Shown: positions 1-35,938 of the stretch, piece by piece
How positions within the stretch are numbered: position 1 is the first letter of the stretch
Layout: the number at the start of each line of letters is the position of its first letter
Source of the DNA: a virus
Lineage: Duplodnaviria; Heunggongvirae; Uroviricota; Caudoviricetes
Length of the DNA: 36,995 nucleotides
Virus record (IMG/VR): IMGVR_UViG_2565956608_000011
Direction: 5' to 3' (one strand)
The notes under the pieces: generated by a model
What the model was told of the DNA's origin: nothing
The model's database searches: none
The model's input: the letters and a program-made list of their open reading frames with translations, nothing else
Translations under genes and position numbers: made by a program

Positions 1-258
1 ATGCAAACCGTTATTTTTGGTCGTCCGGGTTGCCCTTACTGTGTGCGTGCAAAAGATCTGGCTGAGAAATTGAGCAATGAACGCGATGATTTCCAGTATC
101 AGTATGTAGATATTCGTGCGGAAGGGATCACTAAAGAAGATCTACAACAAAAGGCAGGTAAACCCGTAGAAACCGTGCCGCAGATTTTTGTCGATCAGCA
201 ACATATCGGCGGCTATACCGATTTTGCTGCATGGGCGAAAGAGAATCTGGACGCCTGA
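1..258 (+). CDS. grxA: glutaredoxin 1
   Basis: 85-aa ORF starting at window base 1 with the CPYC active-site motif (GRPGCPYCVRAK); recognised as E. coli GrxA. Confidence 0.9.
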   Translation: MQTVIFGRPGCPYCVRAKDLAEKLSNERDDFQYQYVDIRAEGITKEDLQQKAGKPVETVPQIFVDQQHIGGYTDFAAWAKENLDA

Positions 259-267
259 TCGTCTGAC

Positions 268-300
268 AAGCCCTCGCGTTGAGGGCTTTATTGATTTTTT
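268..300. terminator. putative bidirectional rho-independent terminator between grxA and ybjM
   Basis: stem AAGCCCTC / GAGGGCTT with 5-nt loop, followed by a T-rich run; overlaps the ybjM stop. Confidence 0.5.
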
Positions 301-2855: not shown

Positions 2856-3074
2856 TCAAAGAGAGAGCGCCACCTGTCCTGATTTCATTGGATGCGGCTG
2901 AACCGGATTTGACTCTTTTGGCGTTGCAATCGAACGAACAAAAGTTTCATGGGTAACAAAAGTATGGCTGCAGTTAATGTTCTGGCACTGGTTGTAACGC
3001 TCTTTGGTCAATGAAGATACCTGAAAACTGCTGCGAGTATGGGCGGCACTTCCACACAGTGGGCAAATCATCAT
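2856..3074 (-). CDS. ogr: late-gene transcriptional activator Ogr (zinc finger)
   Basis: 72-aa product from internal Met (MMICPLCGSAAH...KERYNQCQNINCSHTF) with C-X2-C-X22-C-X4-C motif as in P2 Ogr; the longer 83-aa ORF in the track is probably an N-terminal over-extension. Confidence 0.8.
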   Translation of the reverse strand: MMICPLCGSAAHTRSSFQVSSLTKERYNQCQNINCSHTFVTHETFVRSIATPKESNPVQPHPMKSGQVALSL

Positions 3075-3164
3075 TTTTCGAGTTCTCCCCATTTTTGCTA
3101 AATTCACAATAATGATACCGCATTATTCCATTTTGCAAACTTAAAAGTTCTCCATTGCGAAGAA

Positions 3165-8829: not shown

Positions 8830-10002
8830 TTACGCGCTGACCTGGCTGGCGAAATTCACCAGGTACTGATCGGTGATGCGCTGGCGCAGCATCAGATTTT
8901 CAAGTGGCGGCACTGGCGTGTAGTCGTAGTCGATGGTGAGTTTTCCGGCTTTCAGGGTGTCTTTGTCGTTCACCGACTCGTCCAGCCAGCAATCACCACC
9001 AATGAGATACCCCTGACTTACCAGGCTGCGCATTTTGGCGCGGATACCTTCGATAATGTCGCGGGCCAGCGACGGGTTCAGCGGTTTGTCCACCGCCCAC
9101 ATGTGCGCTTCTGCCATTGTGTCCGTCAGCACCTGCGCCGTGCGGGTGTAGTTTTCGAAGGCAAAGAGTGGGTCATCACTCAGGCAGCGGGAACCCCAGA
9201 AGCGAAAGCCGTCTTTGCGGATAAGTGTGGTAACATCGTTCTGGTTAAGCAGTCCCGCATCAGTTGCCGGGTCCTGCAGATCCCAGAACACATCAGCAGA
9301 AATTCCGGTGACACCGTTCACGCCCACGTTGGACAGGCTTTTGTGCCACCCTGTCTGCTCATCAATTTTGGCACGCAGACCGAGCGCACGGGCGGTGGCA
9401 TATGCCGTTGCGTCGGCATTCAGCACCGTGTCCCAGCCAGTAAAGTCAGGCCAAATCAGCATTCCTTCGCGCTGGCTGAAGTTTTCACGGTAAGTGATCG
9501 CCTCCTGTACCGTCTTGCAGCCATACGCTGACAGGTAAGCAAACCCACGCAGGCTTTGCGCCACGCTCAGCAACTCAGTCGCAACGGCTTTGTTATCGTG
9601 ACCTGGCACGCCGAGAATGCGCGGTTTAACGCCGAGCTGTGACTGGGCAGATAGCAGGGCTTTCATGCCTGTTTTTTTACCTTCAGCAGTCACAGCGCCG
9701 ATGATATTGGTCGTGGTTTCGTCTTCCGTTTCACCCTGCGGCACACGCACAACAACGGTCACGGGTTTTGCCTGATCAGCGATGGCATCCAGCGAACGGG
9801 CCAGAGTACCGGACTCACCCGCTTTACCGCTGGCAGTCAGCACATCAGTGATCAGCACGGGTTTATTAAGAGGAAACATTTTTGCATCGGCATCATCGCC
9901 CGTGCAGACCATACCCACGATGGCGGTGCTCACCGTGGTAATGGATCGGGTGCCTTCGTTGACTTCAACAACGCGCACCCCGTGGTGGTAATCCTGAGCC
10001 AT
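8830..10002 (-). CDS. FI: contractile tail sheath protein FI
   Basis: 390-aa ORF, first gene of the FI-FII-E-T-U-D block. Confidence 0.85.
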
Positions 10003-10078
10003 AGTGGCGAACCTCCTGATTGGATTAGGCTTCGCCCTATGTTGAAGTGATTGTGCCCGACAAACAGCTAAGTGTAGT

Positions 10079-10096
10079 TGTACAGTTATTCACACA
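10079..10096. promoter_or_regulatory. TGT-N12-ACA dyad, candidate Ogr-dependent late promoter element upstream of FI
   Basis: TGTacagttattcacACA centred ~85 nt upstream of the FI ATG; same dyad type recurs upstream of V and in the O/P divergent region. Confidence 0.45.
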
Positions 10097-10144
10097 AAAT
10101 GACGGTATTTGTCTGCTTGCAGGGATAATCAAAATTATGCTGAT

Positions 10145-10711
10145 TCAGGGGGATTCATTGCTCTTATTTGCCGGAAATTTTCTATAAATGGTAGAAACGC
10201 CTACATCAAAAATCAGTGCAATACGCTGTCTTGATTCTCCGGCCTCGAGTAAACGTCCAATCTGTGCCCACTGTTCGGTGGTCAACTTAGGACGGCGTCC
10301 ACCTACTCTGCCTTTGGCGCGAGCTGCAGCAAGCCCCGCCCTGGTACGTTCAACTATCAGTTCGCGCTCCATTTCAGCCAGGCCCCCCATGACATGAAAA
10401 AAGAAACGGCCCATTGGGGTGCTGGTATCAATACTGTCAGTCAGGCTTCGGAAATTCACGCCACGCTGACGCAACTCTTCTATCAGCGTAACAAGATGCC
10501 GCATACTGCGTCCCAACCTGTCCAGCTTCCAAACAACCAGCGTGTCTCCTGCCGATAGTGTCCTGAGTAGTTTTTTCAGCCCCGGTCTGTCGGACTTAGT
10601 GCCACTGATTTTGTCCTCAAAAATCCGCTCACATCCCGCGCAGTTCAGTGCATTACGTTGCAAATCGGTGTTCTGGTCATTTGTTGACACGCGTACATAG
10701 CCAATAAGCAT
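10145..10711 (-). CDS. serine-recombinase DNA invertase (Gin/Cin/Pin/Hin family)
   Basis: N-terminus MLIGYVRVSTNDQNTDLQRNAL with catalytic-Ser region, C-terminal HTH (GVSTIYRKF); start taken at ATG 10711 (AGGGGA RBS 6 nt upstream) rather than 10717. Confidence 0.85.
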   Translation of the reverse strand: MLIGYVRVSTNDQNTDLQRNALNCAGCERIFEDKISGTKSDRPGLKKLLRTLSAGDTLVVWKLDRLGRSMRHLVTLIEELRQRGVNFRSLTDSIDTSTPMGRFFFHVMGGLAEMERELIVERTRAGLAAARAKGRVGGRRPKLTTEQWAQIGRLLEAGESRQRIALIFDVGVSTIYRKFPANKSNESP

Positions 10712-10766
10712 GATCATTCCCCTGAATAAAAACCGGAGATGATGCCAGTTAGCTGTTACCTCTGCA

Positions 10767-10792
10767 TTTTCATAAACGTTGGTTTGGGAGAA
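10767..10792. repeat. 26-bp invertase crossover site (cix/gix/hix-like), invertase-proximal
   Basis: TTTTCATAAACGTTGGTTTGGGAGAA; its 14-nt right half equals the reverse complement of the left half of the site at 12658-12683; half-site resembles the Hin/Gin consensus TTCTCnnAAACC. Confidence 0.7.
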
Positions 10793-11152
10793 GCAGCGAA
10801 ACGGGGTGTGGGGACAGGGGAAAATCAGATACCGGACATGGCCTCTTTTGCCAGTGGTGATGGATGGATGAAATTACCCAACGGGAAAATCCTGCAATAT
10901 GGTCGTGGTGCGGTTACGCCGACATTATCGACGCAAACAATGAGAATTACATTCAGCATCCCTTTTCCTAAAAAAGTGGACTGCGCCATGCTTACTCATT
11001 CTGGTGATGGTGGTGCGCCTTTAGGTGCTGGGCGGGGATTCGTGATGACCGCAGAAGGCCCAACATTAACCGGTTTTAATTCCGCTTACAGAACTGCATC
11101 AACCAGTTCCACAGTATCGATGAATTACAGTTGGTGGGCTGTTGGTGAGTAA
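10793..11152 (+). CDS. alternative tail-fibre C-terminal segment (Hv'), silent in this orientation
   Basis: open frame continuing from the GLGE codons in the crossover site; would fuse in frame to the constant part of H after inversion; no own start codon. Confidence 0.6.
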   Translation, partial: AAKRGVGTGENQIPDMASFASGDGWMKLPNGKILQYGRGAVTPTLSTQTMRITFSIPFPKKVDCAMLTHSGDGGAPLGAGRGFVMTAEGPTLTGFNSAYRTASTSSTVSMNYSWWAVGE

Positions 11153-11172
11153 TTTTATTCAGGGTGATTTAT

Positions 11173-11616
11173 ATGAACGAATATGTTTATAGCGCAAGGC
11201 ATAATGCTTTTTTCCCTGTGGATATGATTGATAAATATAAATCAGAGGGATGGGATTTATCAGACGCTAAGGAAGTAAATCAAAATATTATCAGTGAGTT
11301 TATGGCTGAACCGCCACAAGGAAAAATCCGTATTGCCGGAGATGATGGGCTGCCTGCGTGGGCAGATATTCCTCCACCCACGCATGAAGAACTTATTGAA
11401 ATTACTGAATCAGAAAGACAGCTACTAATTAACCAGGCCAACGAATACATGAACAGTAAGCAATGGCCCGGTAAAGCCGCTATTGGTCGTCTGAAAGATG
11501 ATGAACTGGCGCAATATAATTTGTGGCTGGATTATCTGGACGCACTGGAACTGGTTGATTCCTCCAGTGCGCCAGATATTGAATGGCCTACGCCTCCGGC
11601 AGTTCAGGCCAGATGA
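11173..11616 (+). CDS. alternative tail fibre assembly protein (G')
   Basis: 147-aa ORF from ATG 11173 (AGGGTG RBS); C-terminus (DYLDALELVDSSSAPDIEWP) parallels that of the minus-strand G protein; convergent with G. Confidence 0.7.
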   Translation: MNEYVYSARHNAFFPVDMIDKYKSEGWDLSDAKEVNQNIISEFMAEPPQGKIRIAGDDGLPAWADIPPPTHEELIEITESERQLLINQANEYMNSKQWPGKAAIGRLKDDELAQYNLWLDYLDALELVDSSSAPDIEWPTPPAVQAR

Positions 11617-12190
11617 CATCCGGCGCGGTGCTGGTATCTGTTGCCGTCACCGCGTCAATGTAATCCAGCACAGCGTTAAGGCGGGTTGTTTCTGCCTGCG
11701 TCAGCTTCCGTCCGGCCTGTAATTTCAGTTGAATCAGACTGATGGAGGCCATTGCAGTATCAATCAGCGACTGGCGCAGTGCTTCTGCTGCATCTACTGC
11801 TGCGCCGTGCTGTGCCTCGGTATCTGTCACCCATTTCTCACCATTCCATTTATCGTATGGCGTTAACGGGGCGATAGTGGTTGTATTTTCAGGATAATCA
11901 CCCGGAGCTGTGATTTCTTTCGATTCTCCTGTTTCGGTGCTATAGACGATTTCACCGCGATGATCTGGCACATATTCCCATGAATTTAAATCCATCGAAC
12001 GGCAGATAGCATAACCCGCCTTATGTGTGCCAGGGGCATCTAAACAGGAATATGCAGGGATACCGACACCAATGGCAAGATATTCATTTGAAGTGGAAAT
12101 ATATTCCCGAGTTTCACCATCATAGTTATAGACGGTAATATTCCCCGCCTTCGTGGCAATAAGCTCGCTATTTAATACGGCGTTATCCAT
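11588..12190 (-). CDS. G: tail fibre assembly protein G
   Basis: 200-aa ORF immediately downstream of H with overlapping stop/start. Confidence 0.8.
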   Translation of the reverse strand: MDNAVLNSELIATKAGNITVYNYDGETREYISTSNEYLAIGVGIPAYSCLDAPGTHKAGYAICRSMDLNSWEYVPDHRGEIVYSTETGESKEITAPGDYPENTTTIAPLTPYDKWNGEKWVTDTEAQHGAAVDAAEALRQSLIDTAMASISLIQLKLQAGRKLTQAETTRLNAVLDYIDAVTATDTSTAPDVIWPELPEA

Positions 12191-13719
12191 TATGCAGCCC
12201 TCACGATAAAGTTAAATGCAATATTTCGTGGACGGGTTTCACTCCCGCCAGTATTACCGATACTCCCTCGTGAATGAAGTGTCGGTGATGGGATCAGACT
12301 CCCTCCTGTATTTGTGGCATCAAGTCCCCGTCCTTGTGTGTATGTCTTTTTGAAAATCGTAGCCAGTTCCCATTCATCTTTTGTGTCGTAACCATCATTG
12401 GCAACAACAATATGACGGTGCTTTTCCAGCATCCCAGCCTGAAGGCTCAATAAAGCACGTCCTGCATCAATACCGCGCCCATCATCCCAGCCACGAATAA
12501 ATTCACCTCGTAAATCAGGCAATTTATTTGTAGGGTAAGCCTTTGCCAGTTCCGGGTATTCTTCAGCAGAAAAAGCCGCACCATTGCATTTCAGCCAGCC
12601 TGTTGGCGGAGTGGCTGAAGGCCACGGAACAGGCACCCCAACAGGTAATGCTGAGCCTTCTCCCAAACCAAGGTATGCGAGAAGACCTGCTACATCCTTT
12701 CCACTCAAATGAGTCAGCGTATTGTCCAGCGGTTGTTTACCTGCCAGCGCATTAAGCATTGTCGTGGCAAAGTTCGGATCATTCCCCAGTGCCGCCGCCA
12801 GTTCGTTCAGTGTATCCAGTGCCGCAGGTGCAGAACCCACCATTGCCGCAATCGCCGATTTCACAAATGCCGTGGTGGCAATCTGTGTATTGTTGACCGA
12901 CTGTGCCGCAGTAGGTGCTGTTGGCGTTCCGGTGAGTGCCGGACTCGACAGCGGCGCTTTCAGTGCCAGCGCATTATTAATAGTGGTACTGAATTTCGGG
13001 TCATTGTTAATGGCTGCGGCAATTTCTTTCAGTGTGTCCAGCGTGGCTGGCGCACCGTTAATCAGAGCAGTAATAGCGGCCTGAACAAACTCTGTGGTCG
13101 CAATCCGAGTGGTGTTATTTCCTGCTGCAGGCGTCGGCGCTTTTGGTTCTCCGGTAAATGTCGGATTATGTTTCTGCGCATACTGGGTATGAGGATCTTG
13201 TGCGGCAATGTGGTTTCTCATCTGGTCATCCACATACAGCTTTAATTCCAGGACTTTATCATCCACGTATTTACGGGTTGCCAGCACTACAGCAGGGTCG
13301 ATTTTCAGGGTGATATTGTCCGTGCTGCTGGTAATCAGCACCATGCGCACGGTCTGGGTACGCCCGCTGCCTTCAGCCAGTTGCGGCTTATAGCTTTCCG
13401 GGCAGTTTCCCACGGCAATCAATGCCCCGGACTCATCAAACAGGCCCACTTCACGTATCCACCAACCGCCCTCGTTTTCAGGGATCACCTGTTCAGCAAT
13501 AATCTGGCTGCTGTTCTGCGGGTCGATATAAAGCATATTCAGCGCAGCCCGGCGTTTCTCATTTACCAGTGCCGTCTGCTTTGCGTCCGGCGTTGGCAAT
13601 ACTCCGCCGCCATCGCCCACCGCCATATGGGTAATTTTTAGCGGCACACCGAGCGCGGCGGCGCTGGCAAGTTTCGCCGCGCCAATATCCGTCAGCAGGG
13701 TATAAAATTTTGTGCTCAT
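12190..13719 (-). CDS. H: tail fibre protein H (constant N-terminal part 12684-13719 plus currently expressed variable C-terminus 12190-12657)
   Basis: 509-aa ORF with Ala/Thr-rich repeats (TxxLINGAPAxLDTLxExAAA twice); contains the crossover site at the constant/variable junction. Confidence 0.85.
   Translation of the reverse strand: MSTKFYTLLTDIGAAKLASAAALGVPLKITHMAVGDGGGVLPTPDAKQTALVNEKRRAALNMLYIDPQNSSQIIAEQVIPENEGGWWIREVGLFDESGALIAVGNCPESYKPQLAEGSGRTQTVRMVLITSSTDNITLKIDPAVVLATRKYVDDKVLELKLYVDDQMRNHIAAQDPHTQYAQKHNPTFTGEPKAPTPAAGNNTTRIATTEFVQAAITALINGAPATLDTLKEIAAAINNDPKFSTTINNALALKAPLSSPALTGTPTAPTAAQSVNNTQIATTAFVKSAIAAMVGSAPAALDTLNELAAALGNDPNFATTMLNALAGKQPLDNTLTHLSGKDVAGLLAYLGLGEGSALPVGVPVPWPSATPPTGWLKCNGAAFSAEEYPELAKAYPTNKLPDLRGEFIRGWDDGRGIDAGRALLSLQAGMLEKHRHIVVANDGYDTKDEWELATIFKKTYTQGRGLDATNTGGSLIPSPTLHSRGSIGNTGGSETRPRNIAFNFIVRAA
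12658..12683. repeat. 26-bp invertase crossover site inside the tail fibre gene
   Basis: TTCTCCCAAACCAAGGTATGCGAGAA, in inverted orientation relative to the site at 10767-10792. Confidence 0.7.
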
Positions 13720-14321
13720 GGATTCACTCTCATTGTGTCAATAACATGGACCGCCCCGCCTTCATGCGCGGTGCCACCGGAAATAATCGTTTCGTTGATA
13801 TACGGATAGATCGTGATTTCTTCGCCAAGATAGCTGGCGGCTCCCACCCAATGCGGGCCGCTGGTCTGCAGATTGATGGACATGCCGATCATGTGGCGGC
13901 TACATGGTTTGGCATCGCTTATCAGTCGCTCAAGTTCCAGATAGGTATCTTCAGTGATGCCCTGGTCCTGCACGCCGATATCCAGGCGAAACGTGCCCGG
14001 TGTTTCTCCGGTCTGCCACCACTCAATAATGCGGATCAGGAATCCGAACGGTTCCACCACCCGCCGCACGGCACTGGTGGTTCCTTTATGCTGATGAATA
14101 TAAAAAGCATCCTTCACTACCTGGCGTTTGACGCTTTCTGTCCAGCCCTCGTCCCAGCGATCCACAGAGAACGCCCAGGCGAGATAAGGCAGGAAGCTGA
14201 CCGGACAGGTAGCCGGATTCCACAAGTCACGCAGCGGCACCTGCAAATCAGAAATCCCGCTACAGGTTTGCGCCAGTCGGCGCTCCAGTGAAGTTGAACC
14301 CGGTGGCAGCAGACTATTCAT
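13716..14321 (-). CDS. I: baseplate protein I
   Basis: 201-aa ORF between J and H; P2 synteny. Confidence 0.8.
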   Translation of the reverse strand: MNSLLPPGSTSLERRLAQTCSGISDLQVPLRDLWNPATCPVSFLPYLAWAFSVDRWDEGWTESVKRQVVKDAFYIHQHKGTTSAVRRVVEPFGFLIRIIEWWQTGETPGTFRLDIGVQDQGITEDTYLELERLISDAKPCSRHMIGMSINLQTSGPHWVGAASYLGEEITIYPYINETIISGGTAHEGGAVHVIDTMRVNP

Positions 14322-15222
14322 CCGTTCCTCCGTTGGTTACACTCCACTGCGTACATGATGCCGCCTGTGTTTTGTTCAGGACCACATCCGCCAGCGGAGA
14401 AGCCAGTTCCACACGTTGAACACCCTCAACATGCAGAGCAGCAAAGATGGCGCTACGGCGAATATCCCGACCAAGCCTCGTCTGGCTGGCAATGTACTTC
14501 TGCAGACTGGCTTTTGCCGCTGCCATTACCGGCTCTGCTTCCGGTCCCGGATAGAGAAAAATGGTGGCTTCCACGCGATACGGGATGATTTCTGCGCTGC
14601 GAACCGTAAGACGGTCAGCCACCGGGCGGACGTTCTCACTGTTCAGAGCTTTTTCCACCACGTCCAGCAGGTCTTTTTCTGCAGTTCCATCGCCTTCGCG
14701 GCTAAGGACAGTCAGCACCACCTCTGCAGGTGCCGGGCTGGTTGCACTGGCATCCGCCACCCGACCGTCGGCGCTTCGGGCATGAAATTCATAAGCTGCA
14801 GTTGGCCCCGCAACAGAAAGCCCTTCAAAGGCTGCAGGCACACGCAGGCGCAACGCTTCATCGCTTTCCATCACAGCTGCAACGGGCGGCACAGCATCAT
14901 TATCAGCAGGCGTCACCGTCAGGCGTGTCACGTTGTAGTTGGCAGCGAGCTGGTCAAGATCGCCGCCCATCGCGTAAGCCACCATCACCGCCTGCGCGGC
15001 TTCGTTAATGCGCTGGCGCAGAAGCAACTCACGGTAAGCGTTCTCCTGCAACAATTTAGTGGCGGGTTCAGATTCCAGTTCCAGCGTGCGGATCACTGCT
15101 TCCTGCTCATCTTTCGGATGAAGCGCCACAAATTCTGCCTTGCGTTCGGCAAGCAGCCTCTCAAAGTCCGGCACATCCACAATCTGCGGTGCAGGCAACT
15201 GCGAAAGGTCAATCACTGCCAT
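14314..15222 (-). CDS. J: baseplate wedge protein J
   Basis: about 302 aa from internal Met MAVIDLSQLP; longer ORF to 15261 is probably an upstream extension. Confidence 0.8.
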   Translation of the reverse strand: MAVIDLSQLPAPQIVDVPDFERLLAERKAEFVALHPKDEQEAVIRTLELESEPATKLLQENAYRELLLRQRINEAAQAVMVAYAMGGDLDQLAANYNVTRLTVTPADNDAVPPVAAVMESDEALRLRVPAAFEGLSVAGPTAAYEFHARSADGRVADASATSPAPAEVVLTVLSREGDGTAEKDLLDVVEKALNSENVRPVADRLTVRSAEIIPYRVEATIFLYPGPEAEPVMAAAKASLQKYIASQTRLGRDIRRSAIFAALHVEGVQRVELASPLADVVLNKTQAASCTQWSVTNGGTDE

Positions 15223-15568
15223 TCTCTGCTCCTGTTGATACGGAAAGGGACACAGGCACACCGTTATTACGCCGCCCGGTCAGCTCCACCACCATTGAAC
15301 CGTCAAAATTGCTGTTGATGGTGATGGAATCCAGCGTCAACCGTGGCTCCCAGCGACTCAGCGCCACATACACTGCCGACATGACCTGCAGGCGTAATGC
15401 CGGATTTTGTGGCTGATCTATCAGTGCCGACAGCAGGGAACCATATTCCCGGCGGGCAATGCGGCTACCCTGCGGCGTCAGCAGAATGTCCCGCACCGAC
15501 TGGCACAGATGGTCAATATCAGTAATGACTTTGCCGCTGGTATTGTTCATCCCGCTATAAAGCGTCAT
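15209..15568 (-). CDS. W: baseplate protein W
   Basis: 119-aa ORF between V and J. Confidence 0.8.
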   Translation of the reverse strand: MTLYSGMNNTSGKVITDIDHLCQSVRDILLTPQGSRIARREYGSLLSALIDQPQNPALRLQVMSAVYVALSRWEPRLTLDSITINSNFDGSMVVELTGRRNNGVPVSLSVSTGAENGSD

Positions 15569-16143
15569 ACCGGGCCTCCGGTTGTATCGCCGCCTTTCAG
15601 GACGCCAGTATGCTGATGCGCATCAACCACGATCCCGTTAGAACTCATCGCTCCGCCGCCCTGGGTAACGCCACCATTGATCACCACTTCGCTGTTAATG
15701 CGCGTGCGGTCAGCCTCCAGTACAAACTCACTGGTTTTCATGGTGATGTTGTCAGCGGCCTCAATGACCATTGATTTGATGCCCCTGACATACCAGCGCC
15801 CGGTGGCGGGTTCATATTCAAACCAGCCGCCATCAGGATGTTCTGTCACGCAGGCGTCCGCCGACGTCGACGGTGGAGCGAACTGATTCGAATAGATGGC
15901 GGGCAACGCAAAGGCAGTCTCCAGATTGCCGCCCAGACTCAGCAGCACCACCTGCTCACCTTCCGATGGTTTCCACCATGTGCGGGCATTACCCGCGCGC
16001 AGCGTCAGCCAGTTAATCCAGTTGGTTTCAAGGTCGCCCGTTTTCACCCGACAAAGCCAGTTTTCCCGGTCCACTTCGGTGACTACACCTGTGCGGATCA
16101 GATTGGTGATAAGGCGCATGATTTCGGTTAATTGTGCGTTCAT
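15565..16143 (-). CDS. V: baseplate spike/hub protein V
   Basis: 192-aa ORF, first gene of the V-W-J-I-H-G block. Confidence 0.8.
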   Translation of the reverse strand: MNAQLTEIMRLITNLIRTGVVTEVDRENWLCRVKTGDLETNWINWLTLRAGNARTWWKPSEGEQVVLLSLGGNLETAFALPAIYSNQFAPPSTSADACVTEHPDGGWFEYEPATGRWYVRGIKSMVIEAADNITMKTSEFVLEADRTRINSEVVINGGVTQGGGAMSSNGIVVDAHQHTGVLKGGDTTGGPV

Positions 16144-16189
16144 AGGGAAAGGTTGCCATCAGGGGAAGAAAGGCGGCAGTGCTGCAACT

Positions 16190-16207
16190 TGTATCAGTGC
16201 TGATACA
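16190..16207. promoter_or_regulatory. TGT-N12-ACA dyad, candidate late promoter element upstream of V
   Basis: TGTatcagtgctgatACA in the S-V intergenic gap, centred ~55 nt upstream of the V ATG. Confidence 0.45.
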
Positions 16208-16211
16208 AAGA

Positions 16212-16658
16212 TCATCCCGCCAGCCATTGCAGAATCATGTCGCGGGTCATTGCCTCAACATCATCATTTACACCCAGCAGGCGGCGCTCTGCGTAACGGA
16301 CCTCAGGTCCTTTGCGACTGACGCGATCACGCAGGCCGTAATGGTGAACGCGGGCAATGCGCTGCACCTTACCTTCAAACTGCACGCTGGCAGAATCGGC
16401 GCTGGCGGCAGTTTTCAGGTATTTTGTGGTACGCAGCTTTGTAAACATCTGACGTTTGATGCGCCCCTTTTTGCTGCGTGCTGTTACTCTGCGCGGCTCA
16501 TAACTGCTGCCATCTGGATTGCGCTGCATCCTGATGTTCTGCCGCTGTGTCCGGCGCAGTTCCTGTGCCAGCTGGCGCATCATTCGGCTTCTTGCGGCTG
16601 GCTCTAGATTCGCCAGCAAGGCACTCAGCCAGTCGTCAACTTTCTGCAGTTCAGCCAC
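16212..16658 (-). CDS. S: tail completion protein S
   Basis: 148-aa ORF at the P2 gpS position. Confidence 0.8.
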   Translation of the reverse strand: MAELQKVDDWLSALLANLEPAARSRMMRQLAQELRRTQRQNIRMQRNPDGSSYEPRRVTARSKKGRIKRQMFTKLRTTKYLKTAASADSASVQFEGKVQRIARVHHYGLRDRVSRKGPEVRYAERRLLGVNDDVEAMTRDMILQWLAG

Positions 16659-17103
16659 TTTTCACCGTCCACATTTCTTCAGGTTCATCAGGTTCCGCTA
16701 CCGCTTCAACACTCGACACACTGCCGTCAGTGCTGACCAGCACACGCTCCGTCAGTTGCAGGTTCAGGCTGATATCACAGACATCGTTACGCAGAATATC
16801 CACCTCAAAGGTGAATAGCTTTTCCCGTAACGCCGGGTTCTTGATGGCATCGGGCTGGTTATCCCGCAGCCACAGCAAAACCGGGGCCATCAGCAGATTC
16901 TGGTCGCCGCTGAAATCCTCAATCACCGCGTTCAGGGTGTAACGGTACTCCCACGACATGGAGCTGGCCCCCGTGGCAACCAGCGAACCGTTATCCACAA
17001 ACAGATGTAGTTTGTCCGGGTTATTGCGGACATAAGGCACCGCTTTATTGAGGGCGTGGCGCAGGGATTGTGGTTTGTTCACTGTTTCGCTCCTGACACG
17101 CAA
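16651..17103 (-). CDS. R: tail completion protein R
   Basis: 150-aa ORF at the P2 gpR position. Confidence 0.8.
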   Translation of the reverse strand: MRVRSETVNKPQSLRHALNKAVPYVRNNPDKLHLFVDNGSLVATGASSMSWEYRYTLNAVIEDFSGDQNLLMAPVLLWLRDNQPDAIKNPALREKLFTFEVDILRNDVCDISLNLQLTERVLVSTDGSVSSVEAVAEPDEPEEMWTVKSG

Positions 17104-17335
17104 TAATCATGTCCACTTTGTCTGCACAGACCGCCCAGGCGGCCTCCGTTTCATCCAGCAATGCGTTCAGATCACCGTTATTGCGCGGCGCTGTCTGATC
17201 CAGCCGACACGGCGTCACTCGCGGACAACCACTGACGGTAAGCTGCTCCTCCGGTGAGTGCCGGACGTTCCCGCAGCCGGATAATGTCAGCAGGCAAAGG
17301 AGTATCAGCCCAGCGGCGTAAATCCTCGTTCTCAC
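17045..17335 (-). CDS. lysC: outer-membrane spanin lipoprotein LysC (Rz1-like)
   Basis: 96-aa ORF with lipobox LTLSGC, partly embedded out of frame in the 3' end of lysB. Confidence 0.7.
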   Translation of the reverse strand: MRTRIYAAGLILLCLLTLSGCGNVRHSPEEQLTVSGCPRVTPCRLDQTAPRNNGDLNALLDETEAAWAVCADKVDMIIACQERNSEQTTIPAPRPQ

Positions 17336-17606
17336 GTTTCAGTTCCTCGATCCGGCGTTGTCGTTGTCTCAGCTGTGCGCTGGTCTGTTCTGCTTCGGCA
17401 TAGAGCCGCGCCTGCTCCCGGTTATTGGTTTCAGTCAGAATGGACAGGCTGATAAGCTGGCTGTTGCTCTTTGCCAGTGCCTGGCTTTTGCTCTGCAGCT
17501 CGTCTGCCTGCGTGCTGATGGTCTGGCTGGCATCAGCCAGCCGCCACGTCTGCCAGCCCAGCGCCGCCAGTAATAACGCCAGCACAACCAGCAGCAACCG
17601 GTTCAT
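17178..17606 (-). CDS. lysB: inner-membrane spanin LysB (Rz-like)
   Basis: 142-aa ORF with N-terminal TM helix and coiled coil. Confidence 0.75.
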   Translation of the reverse strand: MNRLLLVVLALLLAALGWQTWRLADASQTISTQADELQSKSQALAKSNSQLISLSILTETNNREQARLYAEAEQTSAQLRQRQRRIEELKRENEDLRRWADTPLPADIIRLRERPALTGGAAYRQWLSASDAVSAGSDSAAQ

Positions 17607-17980
17607 GCTGCTACCTGTTGCGCCATCTGATTACGGGTGATCCAGAAGGCAATAACGGTCAGTAGATAAAAGACCAGGGTAATAGCCCACCCCGTCCAGG
17701 CGAGACTTACAACAATCAGCAATCGCATCACCCAACTGGTAAATACGTTTTCTTTTCGGGTAATTGTCTTCAGCAAAGATGCCCTTAACTCCTGCCAGAG
17801 CGGGCCATTCTTAATTAACGCAGCCAGTGCTACCGGAATTACCGCCCATGTCAGCAAACAGGCTACCCAAACGCCGGACGCTGCCAGTACCGGAAAAATC
17901 CCCTGCGGATACACCATTGCTGCGATTAACAGCGCCATCCATAACATCAGAAACAGTCCGCTGATTAATTTCTTTTTCAT
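17603..17980 (-). CDS. lysA: lysis timing membrane protein LysA
   Basis: multi-TM protein; start assumed at internal Met MKKKLISGLF (longer ORF extends to 18052). Confidence 0.6.
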   Translation of the reverse strand: MKKKLISGLFLMLWMALLIAAMVYPQGIFPVLAASGVWVACLLTWAVIPVALAALIKNGPLWQELRASLLKTITRKENVFTSWVMRLLIVVSLAWTGWAITLVFYLLTVIAFWITRNQMAQQVAA

Positions 17981-17981
17981 T

Positions 17982-18494
17982 TCAGTTTGCTCCCTGTAAA
18001 CACCAGGCCATCTCCCGCGCACGGCGGTTATCCAGCCCCTGATTAAAAACACCTTTCACATAAACCCAGCGCGGCAACTGTCGGCACGCATCTGCCCAGC
18101 GCCGCTGATTGAGTAATTTCACCAGCGTGGAACTGCAGGCATTGCCCGTTCCCACGTTGAAGGCAAACGACACCGCAGCGTCATACACCTTCTGCGGCGG
18201 CTGTTGCTTCACACACCTTTCCAGCGCCCGCTCGACACGCAGCACGTTGGAGATCAGCCCTTCTGCTGCCTGTCGCTCCGTAATGGTTTTGCCGGGAATG
18301 ACGCCCGACGTATTACCAATGCCGTCGGTCCAGACACCCGCGCTGCACTGATACGGCTGCAGACGACAACCTTCGTAATCGGCAATCAGTTTCAGCCCCT
18401 CCACGGAGGTGTGAAGCTGCTGAAAACCCGGCAGCGTGGCAGCAATAGCCAGCACGGCCCCGACAAGGCAGCGTTTAACGATTGATGGATTCAT
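17982..18494 (-). CDS. K: endolysin (lysozyme-like), possible SAR type
   Basis: 170-aa ORF with Gly/Ala-rich weakly hydrophobic N-terminus (CLVGAVLAIAATLPG) followed by a lysozyme-like E...D...T region. Confidence 0.75.
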   Translation of the reverse strand: MNPSIVKRCLVGAVLAIAATLPGFQQLHTSVEGLKLIADYEGCRLQPYQCSAGVWTDGIGNTSGVIPGKTITERQAAEGLISNVLRVERALERCVKQQPPQKVYDAAVSFAFNVGTGNACSSTLVKLLNQRRWADACRQLPRWVYVKGVFNQGLDNRRAREMAWCLQGAN

Positions 18495-18690
18495 AGTCCT
18501 CCCGCGAGATCTGCCCGTCGCGCAGAAGCTGGTAGGCTTTGTGTTTGTAGTACCAGTTGATAGCCAGCATCAGCACACCAATCATCAGGCCGCCCAGCGT
18601 TGAGGCATCCTTGATGGACAAATCGCCCAGCCAGGCCAGCACGACGGCGATGCAATACGTGATAAAGGCGCTGATTCGCTCAAGCGTCAT
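18475..18690 (-). CDS. Y: holin
   Basis: 71-aa protein with two predicted TM helices and charged C-terminus, directly upstream of the endolysin. Confidence 0.7.
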   Translation of the reverse strand: MTLERISAFITYCIAVVLAWLGDLSIKDASTLGGLMIGVLMLAINWYYKHKAYQLLRDGQISREDYESINR

Positions 18691-18693
18691 AAT

Positions 18694-18897
18694 TCAGTCC
18701 CATAGCTGGACGGTCTGCACGGTGGTGGTGGTCGGAATGTCCGGCAGCTCCACCTGCAGCCCGTGAGGTAAAAAGGGGCCGTATTCGGCAAGCCCCGGAT
18801 TTGCCTTCAGTACCTGCTCCGTGACACCCTGCGTGCGCCCGTAATGACGCCAGCAAAGCGCGTCCACCGTGTCATACTGATGCGCACGCACTTTCAT
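18694..18897 (-). CDS. X: tail protein X (LysM-like)
   Basis: 67-aa ORF at the P2 gpX position. Confidence 0.75.
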   Translation of the reverse strand: MKVRAHQYDTVDALCWRHYGRTQGVTEQVLKANPGLAEYGPFLPHGLQVELPDIPTTTTVQTVQLWD

Positions 18898-19424
18898 CAG
18901 ATAAGCTCCACTGTGCAGTGCGGCGCATCCTGCACCCGGCTGATGGCCCAGCGGGCGTCACGCCACAAATCACCGCTGGCTTCTGCCAGTTCTTCGCCTC
19001 GCTTCACACCGGATGCCGTGGCGTCATAGTCCTGGTATCGTTCGTTGAGCATGGCGCGTGCCCAGCAGTAAACCGCGTTGAAATAGTGCTGAATGCGCTC
19101 ACTTTTGCCGTCCAGCTGCTCCGCCGGAACCTCTGCCAGCGAGGCATATCCCAGCATCTGCTGGCGTCTGCGAAACTCATACAGCTCTGCGTTGACCTCC
19201 GAAATTGCCGACAGCGCAACCTGCTTTAAACGCGGCTGCGTCACCGTGCCGTCAGTGCGCATGACACTGCGAAACTCCGACAGGTCCACATCAGGCCAGA
19301 ACGGCGTGTTTCTGATGATTTCCGCCTGTTCCGGTGCCTGTTCTGGCGCAACAAACTTCATGCTGCTTTCTCCTGAAATAGAGGGCGGTGGACGGGGTTT
19401 TGATGTGGCAGTGCCTTTCGCCAC
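18897..19424 (-). CDS. L: head completion/stabilisation protein L
   Basis: 175-aa ORF after the small terminase gene; true start may be an internal Met (MKFVAPEQ). Confidence 0.7.
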   Translation of the reverse strand: MAKGTATSKPRPPPSISGESSMKFVAPEQAPEQAEIIRNTPFWPDVDLSEFRSVMRTDGTVTQPRLKQVALSAISEVNAELYEFRRRQQMLGYASLAEVPAEQLDGKSERIQHYFNAVYCWARAMLNERYQDYDATASGVKRGEELAEASGDLWRDARWAISRVQDAPHCTVELI

Positions 19425-19456
19425 CCCGTGCCGCCCGTGCGCGGGGGCACGTTCTG

Positions 19457-20107
19457 TCAGCGGCTGTCATTGCGCAGTCTGCGCTCCAGCTGCTGTTTGT
19501 CTTTTTTCACGCCACAGCGGGGATCGAGCTGTAACGCATGGTTGAGATGATTAAGGGCGGAAGCCGGGTTGCTTTCACTCAGGACAGCGCCAATCGCTTT
19601 ATGCAGACGCGCCCGTGACTGGTCCGGCATATCCAGACCGTCTGTCAGCTCCAGCGTCTGCAGCAACAGATCGGCATCAAAGCCGGTGGCGGCAAGCATT
19701 GCGCTCTGCGCCGCGTCTGCCATTTCCTCTGCCAGCACGGTCTGCACATTGCGATTACCCAGCGGCATCACCCAGCCATGACGCAGGGCATGACGCCCGA
19801 TCTCCAGCGCCCCGGCATAATCTCCGGCATCAATGCGCCACAGCATCACGTACATCAGCACGTCATCCTGTTGAGCGCCTCCGGCAGCCAGGACACCCTC
19901 TGCCCAGGCGACGTATTTCGGCAGCAGCTCCACCTTGATTTCCGCTTTTTTGACCGTGGACTGAACGCCCTTGAGACGGCGGCGGTCTTCCGCCAGTTGC
20001 AGCAGCATCAGGTCATAGCCCGACGCGTGGCGAACACTGCCGCCCTCGCGGGCGGCCTGTTCAGCCTGAACGCGCAGGCGATGCTGCCGTGCGGGACTCA
20101 GGCTCAT
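19457..20107 (-). CDS. M: terminase endonuclease (small) subunit M
   Basis: 216-aa ORF following the capsid gene. Confidence 0.8.
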   Translation of the reverse strand: MSLSPARQHRLRVQAEQAAREGGSVRHASGYDLMLLQLAEDRRRLKGVQSTVKKAEIKVELLPKYVAWAEGVLAAGGAQQDDVLMYVMLWRIDAGDYAGALEIGRHALRHGWVMPLGNRNVQTVLAEEMADAAQSAMLAATGFDADLLLQTLELTDGLDMPDQSRARLHKAIGAVLSESNPASALNHLNHALQLDPRCGVKKDKQQLERRLRNDSR

Positions 20108-20110
20108 GGA

Positions 20111-21169
20111 TTACGCTCCGGTTTCTGCTGCGGCGGCGCTGAAGTCGCCAATCTGGATGTTTTCCACCAGTGCGGCGCAGCGGTAGTCCTCAACCACATA
20201 GGCTTCGTTAACGGATTCAAAGTTTTCAATCCGGTCACGTTTCGGGTTGTCGATAACTGAACGGCGGCGAGTGTCTTCCTGCCAGTAGATGGACAGGTTA
20301 TCCAGACGGGTGATCAGCAGCGCATTCGGCGGGAAGAACGGCGCACGCACGGCCTGCAGGCCACCCATGCGTTTCTGGCTGATGATCATATCTGCAGCCA
20401 GTTTTTCACTGTTCTCCTGCTCTTTGTTGACCAGCGGGAAATACTTGTCAGACAACAGTTCACGACCGCAAATCACCACCAGATCGTCATCGTCCTGGTA
20501 AACCACGTCGATAAGCTCATTGACGGCATCCATCACCACGGCGTCCAGGTTGGCATATTCGCCACCTTTGCCGACTTTCACTGCGCCCGGTGTGGTTTCA
20601 CCGCCCGTGGTGGTGCTGCCCATGACGTGATCCGGTGCATCCTCACGGATTTTCTGCAGCCAGCCTTTATTTACATCCTGCAGCAGTGGGTTTTCGCTAC
20701 GGTTGGAGGTTTTCGCACGCTTCACGCCGTTAAAACCGATCATGATGCGGTCCAGTGCCTGACGTTTCACGATGGCATCACGGATGCGCACCTGGAAATC
20801 CTGAAACTTCGCCCACAGGTCCAGCTTCGCGTAGGTCAGTACCGTGTCAAAGTTGGTCTGCTCGCATTTATATTCCACATCGACCATTAGCGTCGGATCG
20901 ACAGGCTCACGCTCTTTTGCGGTAGTATCAGTGGTTCCGGCAATGGTGCTGCCAACACCCAGCCCCAGCAACTGACCAGACTGCTCAGTCACTGGCGTGA
21001 CGTTAATCAGCGTCAGGAATGCGGCGGATTGCTGGATCTGGTCTTCCAGCGTCTGCTGCACGGACGGCTCCACAGTGAACTTGCTGGACAGTTCTTCAAC
21101 TGCCACACCGTTCAGACGCGCCAGCTGCTGCAGGTAAGCGTTAAAAGCAAAGCGGGTATTCTTCTTCAT
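20111..21169 (-). CDS. N: major capsid protein N
   Basis: 352-aa ORF recognised as P2 gpN-like. Confidence 0.9.
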   Translation of the reverse strand: MKKNTRFAFNAYLQQLARLNGVAVEELSSKFTVEPSVQQTLEDQIQQSAAFLTLINVTPVTEQSGQLLGLGVGSTIAGTTDTTAKEREPVDPTLMVDVEYKCEQTNFDTVLTYAKLDLWAKFQDFQVRIRDAIVKRQALDRIMIGFNGVKRAKTSNRSENPLLQDVNKGWLQKIREDAPDHVMGSTTTGGETTPGAVKVGKGGEYANLDAVVMDAVNELIDVVYQDDDDLVVICGRELLSDKYFPLVNKEQENSEKLAADMIISQKRMGGLQAVRAPFFPPNALLITRLDNLSIYWQEDTRRRSVIDNPKRDRIENFESVNEAYVVEDYRCAALVENIQIGDFSAAAAETGA

Positions 21170-21185
21170 CAGGTTTTGTGCTCCA

Positions 21186-22019
21186 TCAGCAATTTGTCAG
21201 AGTGTCAGCGGGGGCATTACCGCCTGTTGCACGCTGACGGTAGTCCTGGCGGTTGTCTTCATGGCTCAGCTTGTCCACCAGTTCATTAAAGGCGGTCAGC
21301 TGTGCCTGCAGGGCTGCCTCCAGCTCAGACAGGCGTTCTTCCTGTTCAGACAGGGATTTTTCGGTGCGCGCACTCAGGTTTTGCTGCTCAGTGGCGACCA
21401 GCTCCACGGCCTTATGCACATCAGAGAACCGGGCATCATCGGACTGCTCTTTTTTGGTGAACAGCGCCGTGACACGGGCAAACAGGGATGTTTTTTCGTC
21501 CTGGACTTCTTCCAGTTCGATCACCGTTTCCTCTGCAGCGGTAAAGAGATTGGCGGGGTTCTGCTTGCGGTTTGCCAGCGGGTTATGGGCTGCACTGGCG
21601 CTGAATGTCAGCATTTCAGTGCCCAGACTGGCAGGGTCATCAGTGGCAGCCAGGCCAACCAGGTAGGCTTTGCCCGTATCAGCAAACTTCGGGCTGACTT
21701 CCATAGAGGTGAATAATTTCTGGCCTTTTTTCACCAGCTCCACCAGGGACTCCGTTGGCTCAACGTCGGCATACAGCGCCATCTTGCCTGCCAGTGGACC
21801 TTCCGTGATTTCTTCAGCAAACAGCGCCGTCACCTTGCCGTAGCGGTTAAAGGTGCTGTCCGGCAGATAAGACTTGATGTGCTCAAGGTTAATCAGCGCG
21901 GTATACACCGCCGGGTTGTAGCTGGCTGCCATCTGTTCCAGCCATTCACGCTGGATTTCGCGTCCGTCGGTGGTGGCACCTTCCACCCCGATGCGAAAAC
22001 GCTTTGCTTTCACTGTCAT
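21186..22019 (-). CDS. O: capsid scaffolding protein O
   Basis: 277-aa ORF with C-terminal coiled coil, upstream of N and divergent from P. Confidence 0.85.
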   Translation of the reverse strand: MTVKAKRFRIGVEGATTDGREIQREWLEQMAASYNPAVYTALINLEHIKSYLPDSTFNRYGKVTALFAEEITEGPLAGKMALYADVEPTESLVELVKKGQKLFTSMEVSPKFADTGKAYLVGLAATDDPASLGTEMLTFSASAAHNPLANRKQNPANLFTAAEETVIELEEVQDEKTSLFARVTALFTKKEQSDDARFSDVHKAVELVATEQQNLSARTEKSLSEQEERLSELEAALQAQLTAFNELVDKLSHEDNRQDYRQRATGGNAPADTLTNC

Positions 22020-22097
22020 GAGCCGTGCTCCGTTAGAAAAAACTTACTGGAGCCTTATGGTTGCGGTGATGGGGGCAGTGAAACAATGCGCGGTATT

Positions 22098-22115
22098 TGT
22101 ACCGACAACCACACA
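22098..22115. promoter_or_regulatory. TGT-N12-ACA dyad in the O/P divergent late promoter region
   Basis: TGTaccgacaaccacACA, centred ~55 nt upstream of the P ATG and ~87 nt from the O ATG. Confidence 0.45.
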
Positions 22116-22161
22116 AACCGCAGGCGGGGAAAGCCTTCATTCAAGGCTGTAGGTTTGTGCC

Positions 22162-23928
22162 ATGAACACCACACTGACACCCGCAGATCTCGATCCCCGT
22201 CGGCAGGCCATGCTGCTGTACTTTCAGGGATACCGCGTCGCCCGCATTGCTGAAATGCTGGGAGAGAAAGTTGCAACCGTTCACAGCTGGAAAAAACGCG
22301 ACAAGTGGGGTGACTATGGGCCGCTGGATCAGATGCAGCTCACCACCGCCGCACGCTACTGCCAGCTCATTATGAAGGAGCACAAAGAAGGGAAAGATTT
22401 CAAAGAGATTGACCTGCTGGCGCGCCAGTCGGAACGCCACGCGCGGATCGGCAAGTTTAACAATGGCGGCAACGAAGCCGACTTAAACCCTAACGTCGCC
22501 AACCGTAACAAAGGCCCGCGCCGTCAGCCGGAAAAGAACGTTTTCACCGATGAACAGATTGAGAAGCTGGAAGAAATCTTCCATTCCTCCATGTTCAACT
22601 ACCAGCGCCACTGGTGGGAAGCCGGAAAAACCAACCGCATCCGCAACCTGCTGAAGTCACGCCAGATCGGCGCGACCTTCTATTTTGCCCGTGAAGCCCT
22701 GATTGACGCCCTGCTAACCGGGCGTAACCAGATTTTCCTTTCCGCCAGCAAGGCTCAGGCCCACGTCTTTAAGCAGTACATCATCGACTTCGCCAAAGAA
22801 GTGGAGGTGGAGCTGAAAGGCGATCCGATGGTGCTTCCTAACGGGGCCACGCTTTACTTCCTCGGCACCAATGCCCGCACTGCCCAGAGTTATCACGGCA
22901 ACCTGTATCTGGATGAATATTTCTGGATACCGAAATTCCAGGAGCTGCGCAAAGTGGCTTCCGGTATGGCTATTCACAAGAAATGGCGACAAACCTATTT
23001 TTCCACGCCATCCAGCCTGACTCATAGTGCTTATCCGTTCTGGTCCGGTGCGCTGTTCAACCGTGGGCGCAACAAAGCCGATAAGGTGGACATCGACCTG
23101 TCCCACAGCAATCTGGCCCCCGGCCAGCTGTGCGCTGACGGGCAGTACCGCCAGATAGTCACCGTGGAAGATGCGGTGCGCGGCGGCTGTAACCTGTTCG
23201 ACCTTGACCAGTTGCGCATGGAGTACAGCCCGGACGAATACCAGAATCTGCTGATGTGCGAGTTTGTGGACGATCTCGCGTCCGTGTTCCCGCTCAGCGA
23301 GCTGCAGGCGTGCATGGTGGACAGCTGGGAAGTTTGGACCGACTTTCATGCACTGGCGCTGCGCCCGTTTGGCTGGCGCGAAGTGTGGATCGGTTATGAC
23401 CCGGCAAAAGGTACGCAGAACGGCGACAGCGCCGGATGCGTGGTGGTGGCACCGCCAGCCGTGCCGGGCGGTAAGTTCCGCATTCTTGAGCGTCACCAGT
23501 GGCGCGGGATGGACTTCCGCGCCCAGGCTGACGCCATCAAAAAACTGACTGAACAGTACAACGTGACATACATCGGTATCGACTCAACCGGCGTCGGTCA
23601 TGGGGTTTACGAGAACGTGAAAGCGTTTTTTCCTGCCGTCCGGGAGTTTGTCTACAACCCCAACGTTAAAAATGCCCTGGTACTCAAGGCCTACGACATT
23701 ATCAGTCACCGCCGTCTGGAGTTTGACGCCGGACACACCGACATAGCGCAGTCATTTATGGCAATCCGTCGCGCCACCACCGCCAGCGGCAACCGCCCGA
23801 CCTATGAAGCCAGCCGCAGCGAAGAAGCCAGCCATGCCGATCTGGCGTGGGCAACAATGCACGCACTGTTTAACGAACCGCTGCAGGGCGAGTCCGCCAA
23901 TACCAGCAATATTGTGGAGATTTTTTGA
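22162..23928 (+). CDS. P: terminase ATPase (large) subunit P
   Basis: 588-aa ORF divergent from O, upstream of and overlapping the portal gene. Confidence 0.85.
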   Translation: MNTTLTPADLDPRRQAMLLYFQGYRVARIAEMLGEKVATVHSWKKRDKWGDYGPLDQMQLTTAARYCQLIMKEHKEGKDFKEIDLLARQSERHARIGKFNNGGNEADLNPNVANRNKGPRRQPEKNVFTDEQIEKLEEIFHSSMFNYQRHWWEAGKTNRIRNLLKSRQIGATFYFAREALIDALLTGRNQIFLSASKAQAHVFKQYIIDFAKEVEVELKGDPMVLPNGATLYFLGTNARTAQSYHGNLYLDEYFWIPKFQELRKVASGMAIHKKWRQTYFSTPSSLTHSAYPFWSGALFNRGRNKADKVDIDLSHSNLAPGQLCADGQYRQIVTVEDAVRGGCNLFDLDQLRMEYSPDEYQNLLMCEFVDDLASVFPLSELQACMVDSWEVWTDFHALALRPFGWREVWIGYDPAKGTQNGDSAGCVVVAPPAVPGGKFRILERHQWRGMDFRAQADAIKKLTEQYNVTYIGIDSTGVGHGVYENVKAFFPAVREFVYNPNVKNALVLKAYDIISHRRLEFDAGHTDIAQSFMAIRRATTASGNRPTYEASRSEEASHADLAWATMHALFNEPLQGESANTSNIVEIF

Positions 23929-26585: not shown

Positions 26586-26677
26586 TGGAAAATCCTTTTA
26601 GGAAAAAGCTCAAGCTATCAAGAATCCTTTATCCGAACAACTGTTTTAATTTATATATCTATCTGGTTCAGCGCGCG

Positions 26678-26696
26678 CTCGTATCCCCGCCACGCC
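26678..26696 (-). other. cos-like sequence (candidate cohesive-end site)
   Basis: minus strand reads GGCGTGGCGGGGATACGAG; the first 13 nt match the 19-nt cohesive end recalled for 186 (GGCGTGGCGGGGAAAGCAT) and resemble P2 (GGCGAGGCGGGGAAAGCAC); lies in the expected Q-to-A interval. Confidence 0.4.
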
Positions 26697-26966
26697 TGCC
26701 CGCTTTATGTAGTGGTTTTCATGCACCTGCATGCTCTACGCAAAAGCCCGCCAGTTCTGGTGGGCCTTAGCAATAACGATCCTCAAACGATCATGCAATC
26801 TCATGCAGTATAGGCATGCACAACAACTTACCTTAAGAAAAAACATCTGATATGCCCAACTGTTTCGTCTCTTTTCCAGTAGCTTGCTATGGCTTATCTT
26901 TAATGCAACTGTAATCGTGTATGAAGATACAATCCCTACCAATCATAAAAATGAGGAACACAAAGA

Positions 26967-35880: not shown

Positions 35881-35938
35881 CAATGTATGTTTCATAGTAA
35901 TCACACATTGATTACTGGTTGTATATACAGTTAAATTT

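Follow-up and report, generated by a model that had tools for sequence, protein, structure and literature searches.

Three TGT-N12-ACA dyads as predicted activator sites at the late promoters of a Fels-2-type prophage

In phage P2, the late promoters PP, PO, PV and PF share the consensus dyad TGT-N12-ACA and depend on the activator Ogr (PMC3931495, which cites for the P2 late promoters both Christie & Calendar 1985 and Julien & Calendar 1995). Exact copies of this dyad are found in a 36,995-nucleotide stretch of viral DNA (IMG/VR record IMGVR_UViG_2565956608_000011; here "the window", meaning the whole stretch that was analysed), upstream of FI, upstream of V and between the divergent genes O and P, and they raise the question of whether they serve as activator sites or are merely the matches that so short a motif will produce in any DNA. 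The window is a P2-like prophage of the Fels-2 type (Felsduovirus). The open reading frame map and the Pfam assignments show a prophage map that runs reversed relative to that of P2, with the genes in the P2 order, and FI, V, O and P, all identified by Pfam, each stand first in their operon. The sequence, placement and conservation of the dyads are described below, together with an activator gene carried by the same prophage, and they make it very probable that the three dyads are binding sites of the prophage's own Ogr-family activator, defining the late promoters pF, pV and pO/pP.

Three dyads at the heads of the late operons

The sites in question are the following:
10078-10097, minus strand: predicted activator site of the FI operon, TTGTGTGAATAACTGTACAA; core 10079-10096, centre 10087.5; exact dyad
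16189-16208, minus strand: predicted activator site of the V operon, TTGTATCAGCACTGATACAA; core 16190-16207, centre 16198.5; exact dyad
22097-22116, no strand assigned: predicted activator site of the O/P region, predicted to be shared, TTGTACCGACAACCACACAA; core 22098-22115, centre 22106.5; exact dyad

A scan of the window confirmed exact dyads at these three cores, where a preliminary description of the same DNA had placed them. All three extend to TTGT-N12-ACAA, and the V site, which starts 4 nt past the stop codon of S, is a perfect 8+8 palindrome. The distances from dyad centre to ATG, measured as 85.5 nt for FI, 55.5 nt for V, 87.5 nt for O and 55.5 nt for P, fall into the two classes that had been claimed, one of about 55 nt (V and P) and one of about 85-87 nt (FI and O). 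The proposal that these are late promoters of the Ogr type is likewise supported by the P2 gene order, by the P2-like placement of the dyads and by the presence of an ogr homologue. This gene, located at 2856-3074 on the minus strand, encodes a 72-residue C4 zinc-finger protein of the Ogr/Delta family (PF04606, E=6.7e-22) with the motif CX2CX22CX4C, reading CPLC-X22-CQNINC. Its product is 52% identical to P2 Ogr (37/72, E=2e-28), 55% identical to the B protein of phage 186 and 68% identical to the Fels-2 homologue, and it is presumed to be the protein that binds the three dyads.

The most immediate objection is that a motif of six bases has been matched here by chance, and the bare count lends it some force. 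The window holds 10 exact copies of TGT-N12-ACA, where dinucleotide shuffles give an expectation of 10.34 +/- 2.97; six of the 10 lie at sites unconnected to late operons, and a seventh (22156-22173) adjoins the O/P spacer and has a chance-level score. The window-wide count, which the preliminary description had put forward as a check, was thus run and neither supports nor refutes the sites. Placement, on the other hand, is well above chance, since three of the 10 dyads fall within the 352 nt made up by the S-V, invertase-FI and O-P spacers together, where 0.098 would be expected (Poisson P ~1.5e-4). A profile derived from outside the window gives a further measure. Relatives of V and FI were collected from IMG/VR, and 22 sites from the V and FI families of other phages, the window's own families being left out, were used to build a symmetrised profile of 24 columns with which the whole window was scanned. 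The three dyads occupy ranks 1-3 (V 23.3, FI 19.6, O/P 19.5), while the best score in random windows is 12.5 +/- 2.4, with a maximum of 21.1 in 200 trials. The same scan revealed no further late promoters in the window: after rank 4, the profile matches (at 3346, 28685, 302 and elsewhere) score at most 11.8 and lie within genes or host DNA, and an exact copy of the motif ahead of int, at 35888, does not appear in the profile's top 20.

Conservation among relatives speaks in the same direction. An exact dyad is present upstream of V in all 13 mutually unrelated sequence families, its centre lying 54.5-57.5 nt from the V ATG, and upstream of FI in 11 of 11 unrelated families, at 78.5-85.5 nt from the ATG. 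Phage Fels-2 carries exact dyads at the same three places, at 81.5 nt from the ATG for FI, 55.5 nt for V and 87.5/55.5 nt for O/P. For the O/P site itself, the IMG/VR relatives of the O protein, being at least 97% identical and forming a single sequence family, are uninformative, and other genera were used instead; Fels-2, one Gegevirus and one Yersinia phage keep a single dyad at 55.5-56.5 nt from the P ATG, in which TGT, ACA and the position are retained and the N12 varies. Placement, a profile built elsewhere and the phylogenetic footprint are three independent arguments that the dyads are more than chance, and with a dyad kept at constant spacing in every one of the 24 unrelated upstream families, and in Fels-2 as well, the chance explanation is effectively refuted.

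It is of note that the S-V spacer of the relatives is an insertion hot spot, in which 13 mutually unrelated sequences were found and where P2 has orf30; each insert brings its own dyad, -10 hexamer and predicted leaderless ATG, at the same spacing. In the window the S-V spacer (16144-16211) measures 68 bp only and is without a terminator.

Two other readings accept that the dyads are real and assign them to a different function. According to one of them they are sites for a host regulator such as CRP, whose consensus is TGTGA-N6-TCACA, and the half-sites do often read TGTG..../....CACA, in a CRP-like manner. The spacing between TGT and ACA, however, is 12 in the three sites and in the 24 families, as opposed to 10 for CRP, and on this ground the CRP reading was rejected; in addition, TGT is followed by G/A and then T/C, with no conserved TGTGA, and the motif accompanies phage late operons and a phage Ogr homologue across Escherichia, Salmonella and Yersinia hosts, so that a host-regulator origin must be rated as very improbable. 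The other reading, in which the dyads are RNA or DNA hairpins serving as terminators of the upstream operon, draws on the V dyad, a perfect palindrome so close to the end of S, but it is even harder to sustain: in the FI and O/P dyads, as in most relatives, only TGT/ACA and the flanking T/A are complementary, no T-run follows the dyads, and a terminator scan, on which this reading was rejected, found none of them to be a credible terminator. Binding sites for the prophage's own Ogr-family activator therefore remain the preferred interpretation.

Predicted promoter cores, starts and leaders

Alignment of the 24 unrelated V and FI promoters on the dyad centre reveals conserved positions of a probable promoter core. 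Within the dyad, TTGT(G/A)(T/C)...ACA(A) is conserved, the T before TGT being invariant, and downstream of it only two positions are conserved, an A at centre+44.5 and a T at centre+48.5. With +1 placed at centre+55.5, these would correspond to positions -11 and -7 of a -10 hexamer, in agreement with a start about 55 bp from the dyad and with the same geometry at the mapped starts of P2 and 186. An nAnnnT hexamer occupies centre+44..49 in 11/11 FI families, and the succession of nAnnnT hexamer, 6-7 nt and ATG is seen in 10-11 of the 13 V families (hand count). Mapped P2 starts have comparable hexamers at -12 to -7, of which GAAAAT, GAAACT (pO) and TAGCCT (pP) contain both A-11 and T-7, while AATCTC (pV) contains A-11 only. 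The -35 regions of the aligned promoters show T or TG at most, and a generic sigma-70 consensus scan of 9900-22300 found no site in the three spacers, as is expected for activator-dependent promoters.

These features could be accommodated in a mechanism whereby the Ogr-family activator would bind the three dyads, pO and pP using one common site, and the centre of each site would lie some 55.5 bp ahead of its transcription start. Of the -10 element, a weak one, just the critical positions A(-11) and T(-7) would be retained, there being no usable -35, and the bound activator would recruit RNA polymerase through its alpha subunit, by analogy with P2. Late transcription in P2 needs contact between the activator and the alpha subunit of RNA polymerase, as indicated by the rpoA109 phenotype. 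The predicted core elements are listed below:
10039-10044, minus strand: predicted -10 hexamer of pF, CAACAT, following the geometry of P2 pF and 186 pJ
about 10032 (+/-2), minus strand: putative pF start; leader of about 30 nt, Shine-Dalgarno AGGAGG at 10012-10017
16150-16155, minus strand: predicted -10 hexamer of pV, CAACCT; +1 is predicted on the first base of the V start codon, the A at 16143
22057-22062, minus strand: predicted -10 hexamer of pO, AACCAT, following the geometry of the mapped start of P2 pO
about 22050 (+/-2), minus strand: putative pO start; leader of about 31 nt, Shine-Dalgarno GGAG at 22028-22031
22150-22155, plus strand: predicted -10 hexamer of pP, TAGGTT; +1 is predicted on the first base of the P start codon, the A at 22162

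If the distance from site to start is fixed, the two classes of centre-to-ATG distance reflect the length of the leader, and the best explanation for them would be that the first genes V and P are leaderless and the first genes FI and O leadered. All 11 FI families have a Shine-Dalgarno sequence, with the ATG about 26-30 nt past the predicted start, and 12 of the 13 V families have none; V of the window, in which CAACCT is followed by 6 nt and the ATG, is also without one. For V, a leaderless messenger is already known from P2, where the V start coincides with the V ATG in the P2 record (AF063097), and it may be predicted by analogy for V of the window; P2 is listed among the sources of known leaderless E. 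coli genes, with reference to Christie & Calendar 1985, in PMC4633059.

The case of P is less familiar. The ATG at 22162, ahead of which the open reading frame has no other start codon, is not preceded by a Shine-Dalgarno sequence, and it stands 6 nt after TAGGTT. Among Gegevirus-like and Yersinia-like relatives, 102 distinct P-upstream sequences were grouped into 18 clusters, 17 of which lack a Shine-Dalgarno sequence and have a hexamer of the TAGCCT/TATGTT type 6-7 nt before the ATG. TAGCCT, homologous to TAGGTT of the window, is the -12 to -7 element of the mapped P2 pP, which in P2 is then followed by a 23-nt leader. The balance of this evidence tips slightly in favour of a P-Q (terminase/portal) operon that, like the V operon, would be leaderless in Felsduovirus, Gegevirus and Yersinia P2-like phages, with +1 at the A of the ATG.

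The leader of FI contains an inverted repeat, GGCGAA at 10036-10031 with TTCGCC at 10011-10006 (minus strand), which brackets the leader with the Shine-Dalgarno sequence in the loop. In unrelated families of FI leaders, 5-6 bases near the predicted pF start complement bases that end 3 nt before the ATG, with compensating pairs such as GGCAG/CTGCC, GGCAT/ATGCC and GGTGAA/TTCATT. When the helix, which was chosen by eye, was assessed over 29 distinct leaders, 78% of the cells of the comparison were found to pair, versus 27-55% with the partner slid, and 24 double-change cells were counted, versus 9.8 +/- 2.6 in shuffles. RNAalifold did not predict the helix on the 29 FI leaders, returning negligible structure (-0.32 kcal/mol), and the 5' arm of the repeat lies mostly upstream of the predicted P2-like pF start. 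That the repeat (10031-10036 with 10006-10011) forms a functional RNA helix holding the Shine-Dalgarno sequence in its loop is a weaker possibility.

The O/P region and the comparison with known phages

The 142-bp spacer between the divergent genes O and P poses a question of its own, namely whether one site could serve two promoters. It was suggested in the preliminary description that the only dyad of this region might be shared by both, and the P2 record annotates exactly such an arrangement ('activator binding site; pO, pP promoters'). The sharing is thereby supported, but not the uniqueness as it was worded: a second exact dyad, tTGTGCCATGAACACCACA at 22156-22173, straddles the P ATG with its centre 58 bp from that of the shared one, although only the first dyad, at 55.5 nt from the start codon of P and 87.5 nt from that of O, is high-scoring, the second being at chance level.

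Two functional O/P sites could nonetheless be envisaged, in which the extra dyad would be either an operator by which pP is held down once the activator is abundant, or an additional site of the kind present in P4, whose late promoters have a second activator site. The extra dyad is exact, its left half, tTGTGCCA, matches the commonest half-site, and it is kept in nearly all of 25 distinct close relatives. These relatives are 97-100% identical, however, and so carry no weight; the ACA arm is a Thr codon of P, the profile score of 13.5 (rank 4) lies in the random range, with about 0.37 matches of at least 13.5 expected per random window, and the dyad is broken in Fels-2 (where it reads TGG) and in one Gegevirus. 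A role for two sites is thus decidedly unlikely; 22156-22173 was rejected as a real activator site on account of its score and its loss in Fels-2 and that Gegevirus, and from these sequences the extra dyad is most likely fortuitous.

With one shared O/P site retained, the late-promoter arrangement of the window is almost certainly correct and is already known, being textbook material that has been mapped in P2 and 186. P2 (AF063097) has the same four operons with the same first genes, one site common to PO and PP, weak -10 elements without a -35, and an activator of the same Pfam family. Its record gives centre-to-ATG distances of 83 nt for FI, 55.5 for V, 95 for O and 79 for P, and centre-to-mapped-start distances of 55-57: the pF site is centred 57 nt from the start and the pV site 55.5 nt, and the shared pO/pP site stands 55 and 56 nt away on either side. 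The differences from P2 are minor: perfect dyads, a P gene predicted to be leaderless, and an S-V spacer free of inserts and terminators. The sites of P2 are imperfect, TGT-N12-CCA at pF and pO/pP, in contrast to the three perfect TTGT-N12-ACAA of the window; P2 has a 23-nt P leader with a Shine-Dalgarno sequence, where in the window the P ATG is at the predicted +1; and where the window has its 68-bp S-V spacer, P2 carries orf30 and a terminator.

Phage 186 (U32222) offers a similar picture, in that its record assigns a single B-protein site to the two divergent promoters p12 and pV ('B protein; activation of pV and p12'), and the dyad centre at pJ is 57.5 nt away from the mapped start and some 82 nt away from the ATG of the sheath gene. 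The window, too, has immunity genes of the 186 type, for a CI repressor and a DinI/Tum-like protein, in an SOS-linked region. The 186 homologue of P, orf12, starts 77.5 nt from the site centre and so is leadered, unlike what is predicted for P of the window. Fels-2 and 500465-1 share the genus-level backbone of the window, and the O/P region is 99.3% identical to that of Escherichia phage 500465-1 and 91.9% identical to that of Salmonella phage Fels-2 (NC_010463). Fels-2 has the same layout of a tail-fibre invertase upstream of FI, and its N12 cores differ from those of the window at all three sites; its record annotates no promoters, and a literature search on Fels-2 late promoters returned nothing specific.

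In the Ralstonia P2-like phages RSA1 and RSY1 (PMC5694545, which like PMC3931495 describes the role of Ogr) and in Pseudomonas phage phiCTX, a dyad of the TGT...ACA type precedes these late operons, and an Ogr homologue is present. Such sites differ from those of the window in their N13 spacing, and the Ralstonia sites, TGTTGT-N13-ACAACA, in their longer arms as well.

Several observations weigh against the interpretation of the dyads as sites of the prophage's Ogr-family activator, in addition to the chance-level frequency of the bare motif. Binding of the activator, the starts and the dependence on Ogr are attributed to this phage by homology, and we infer leaderless translation in a similar manner. 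The -10 hexamers (CAACAT, CAACCT, AACCAT, TAGGTT) are poor, so that the starts could shift by a few bases, and the inverted repeat at the predicted pF start would be easier to reconcile with transcription beginning 4-5 nt farther upstream. The sites need not match the consensus exactly, nor does an exact match define them, as can be seen from P2 and 186, in whose genomes no late promoter has an exact TGT-N12-ACA; the annotated sites of P2 at 3057-3087 and 17555-17583, and those of 186 at 3798-3817 and 14091-14110, read TGT-N12-CCA. The Fels-2 group, with its perfect dyads, thereby comes closer to the ideal form of the motif than the very phages that supplied the consensus. Lastly, the O/P spacer of Erwinia phage ENT90 is without the dyad at up to one mismatch, which indicates that the motif is not universal in Peduoviridae.

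The ENT90 spacer has a different palindrome, GCTCAcggaTGAGC, and the O/P spacers of phiCTX and Burkholderia phage phiE094 have TGT-N13-ACA in place of N12. Taken together, the N13 spacing and the other palindrome suggest that activator specificities may have diverged.

Gene map of the prophage and implications

The late operons are set in the following map, in which the left 2.6 kb of the window are host DNA and the prophage end falls between 2620 and 2856:
288-665, minus strand: YbjM-family membrane protein, host flank
935-2620, plus strand: YbjL-like Asp-Al_Ex/TrkA-C permease, host flank
2856-3074, minus strand: ogr, followed by D, U, T, E and FII
8830-10002, minus strand: FI (Pfam)
10145-10717, minus strand: Gin/Cin-type serine invertase, just ahead of the FI promoter, accompanied by an alternative tail-fibre module in inverted orientation
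15565-16143, minus strand: V (Pfam), preceded in the map by G, H, I, J and W
16212-16658, minus strand: S, followed by R, the lysis genes, L, M and N
21186-22019, minus strand: O (Pfam)
22162-23928, plus strand: P, terminase (Pfam), followed by Q
beyond Q: cargo genes, gpA, the 186-type CI repressor, a defence gene and the integrase

The invertible tail-fibre module, of the Gin/Cin type, spans 10145-12683 upstream of the FI promoter. Two inverted repeats of 27 nt (10767-10793 and 12657-12683) belong to it, as do genes for an alternative fibre tip and a chaperone (10739-11152 and 11164-11616), on the strand opposite to the invertase. Between the CI repressor and the integrase, 34204-35880 (plus strand) encodes a 558-residue protein with DUF4041 and T5orf172/MUG113 domains and a strong match to the anti-phage defence protein PD-Lambda-1 (E=4e-120). 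The cargo that follows the portal gene (25026-27707) comprises two genes, a minus-strand one for a 519-residue AAA/ORC-CDC6-like ATPase and a plus-strand one for a DUF4145 protein; the products of the two have weak PADLOC matches only (mad8 3e-6, PD-T7-4 2e-5).

For annotation, the value of these sites is that three of them fix four late promoters of a very common type of enterobacterial prophage, and they yield start predictions that can be tested to the single base, at about 10032 (minus), 16143 (minus), about 22050 (minus) and 22162 (plus). As to method, the count of a six-base motif is uninformative, and it is fixed geometry together with conservation across unrelated flanks that makes the case. 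The one mildly new element of biology is the predicted leaderless terminase operon of this lineage. If that prediction is true, two of the four late operons would rely on 70S-type leaderless initiation, where P2 and 186 have a P leader of about 23 nt, and the terminase operon would provide a second natural leaderless late messenger besides that of the classic P2 gene V.

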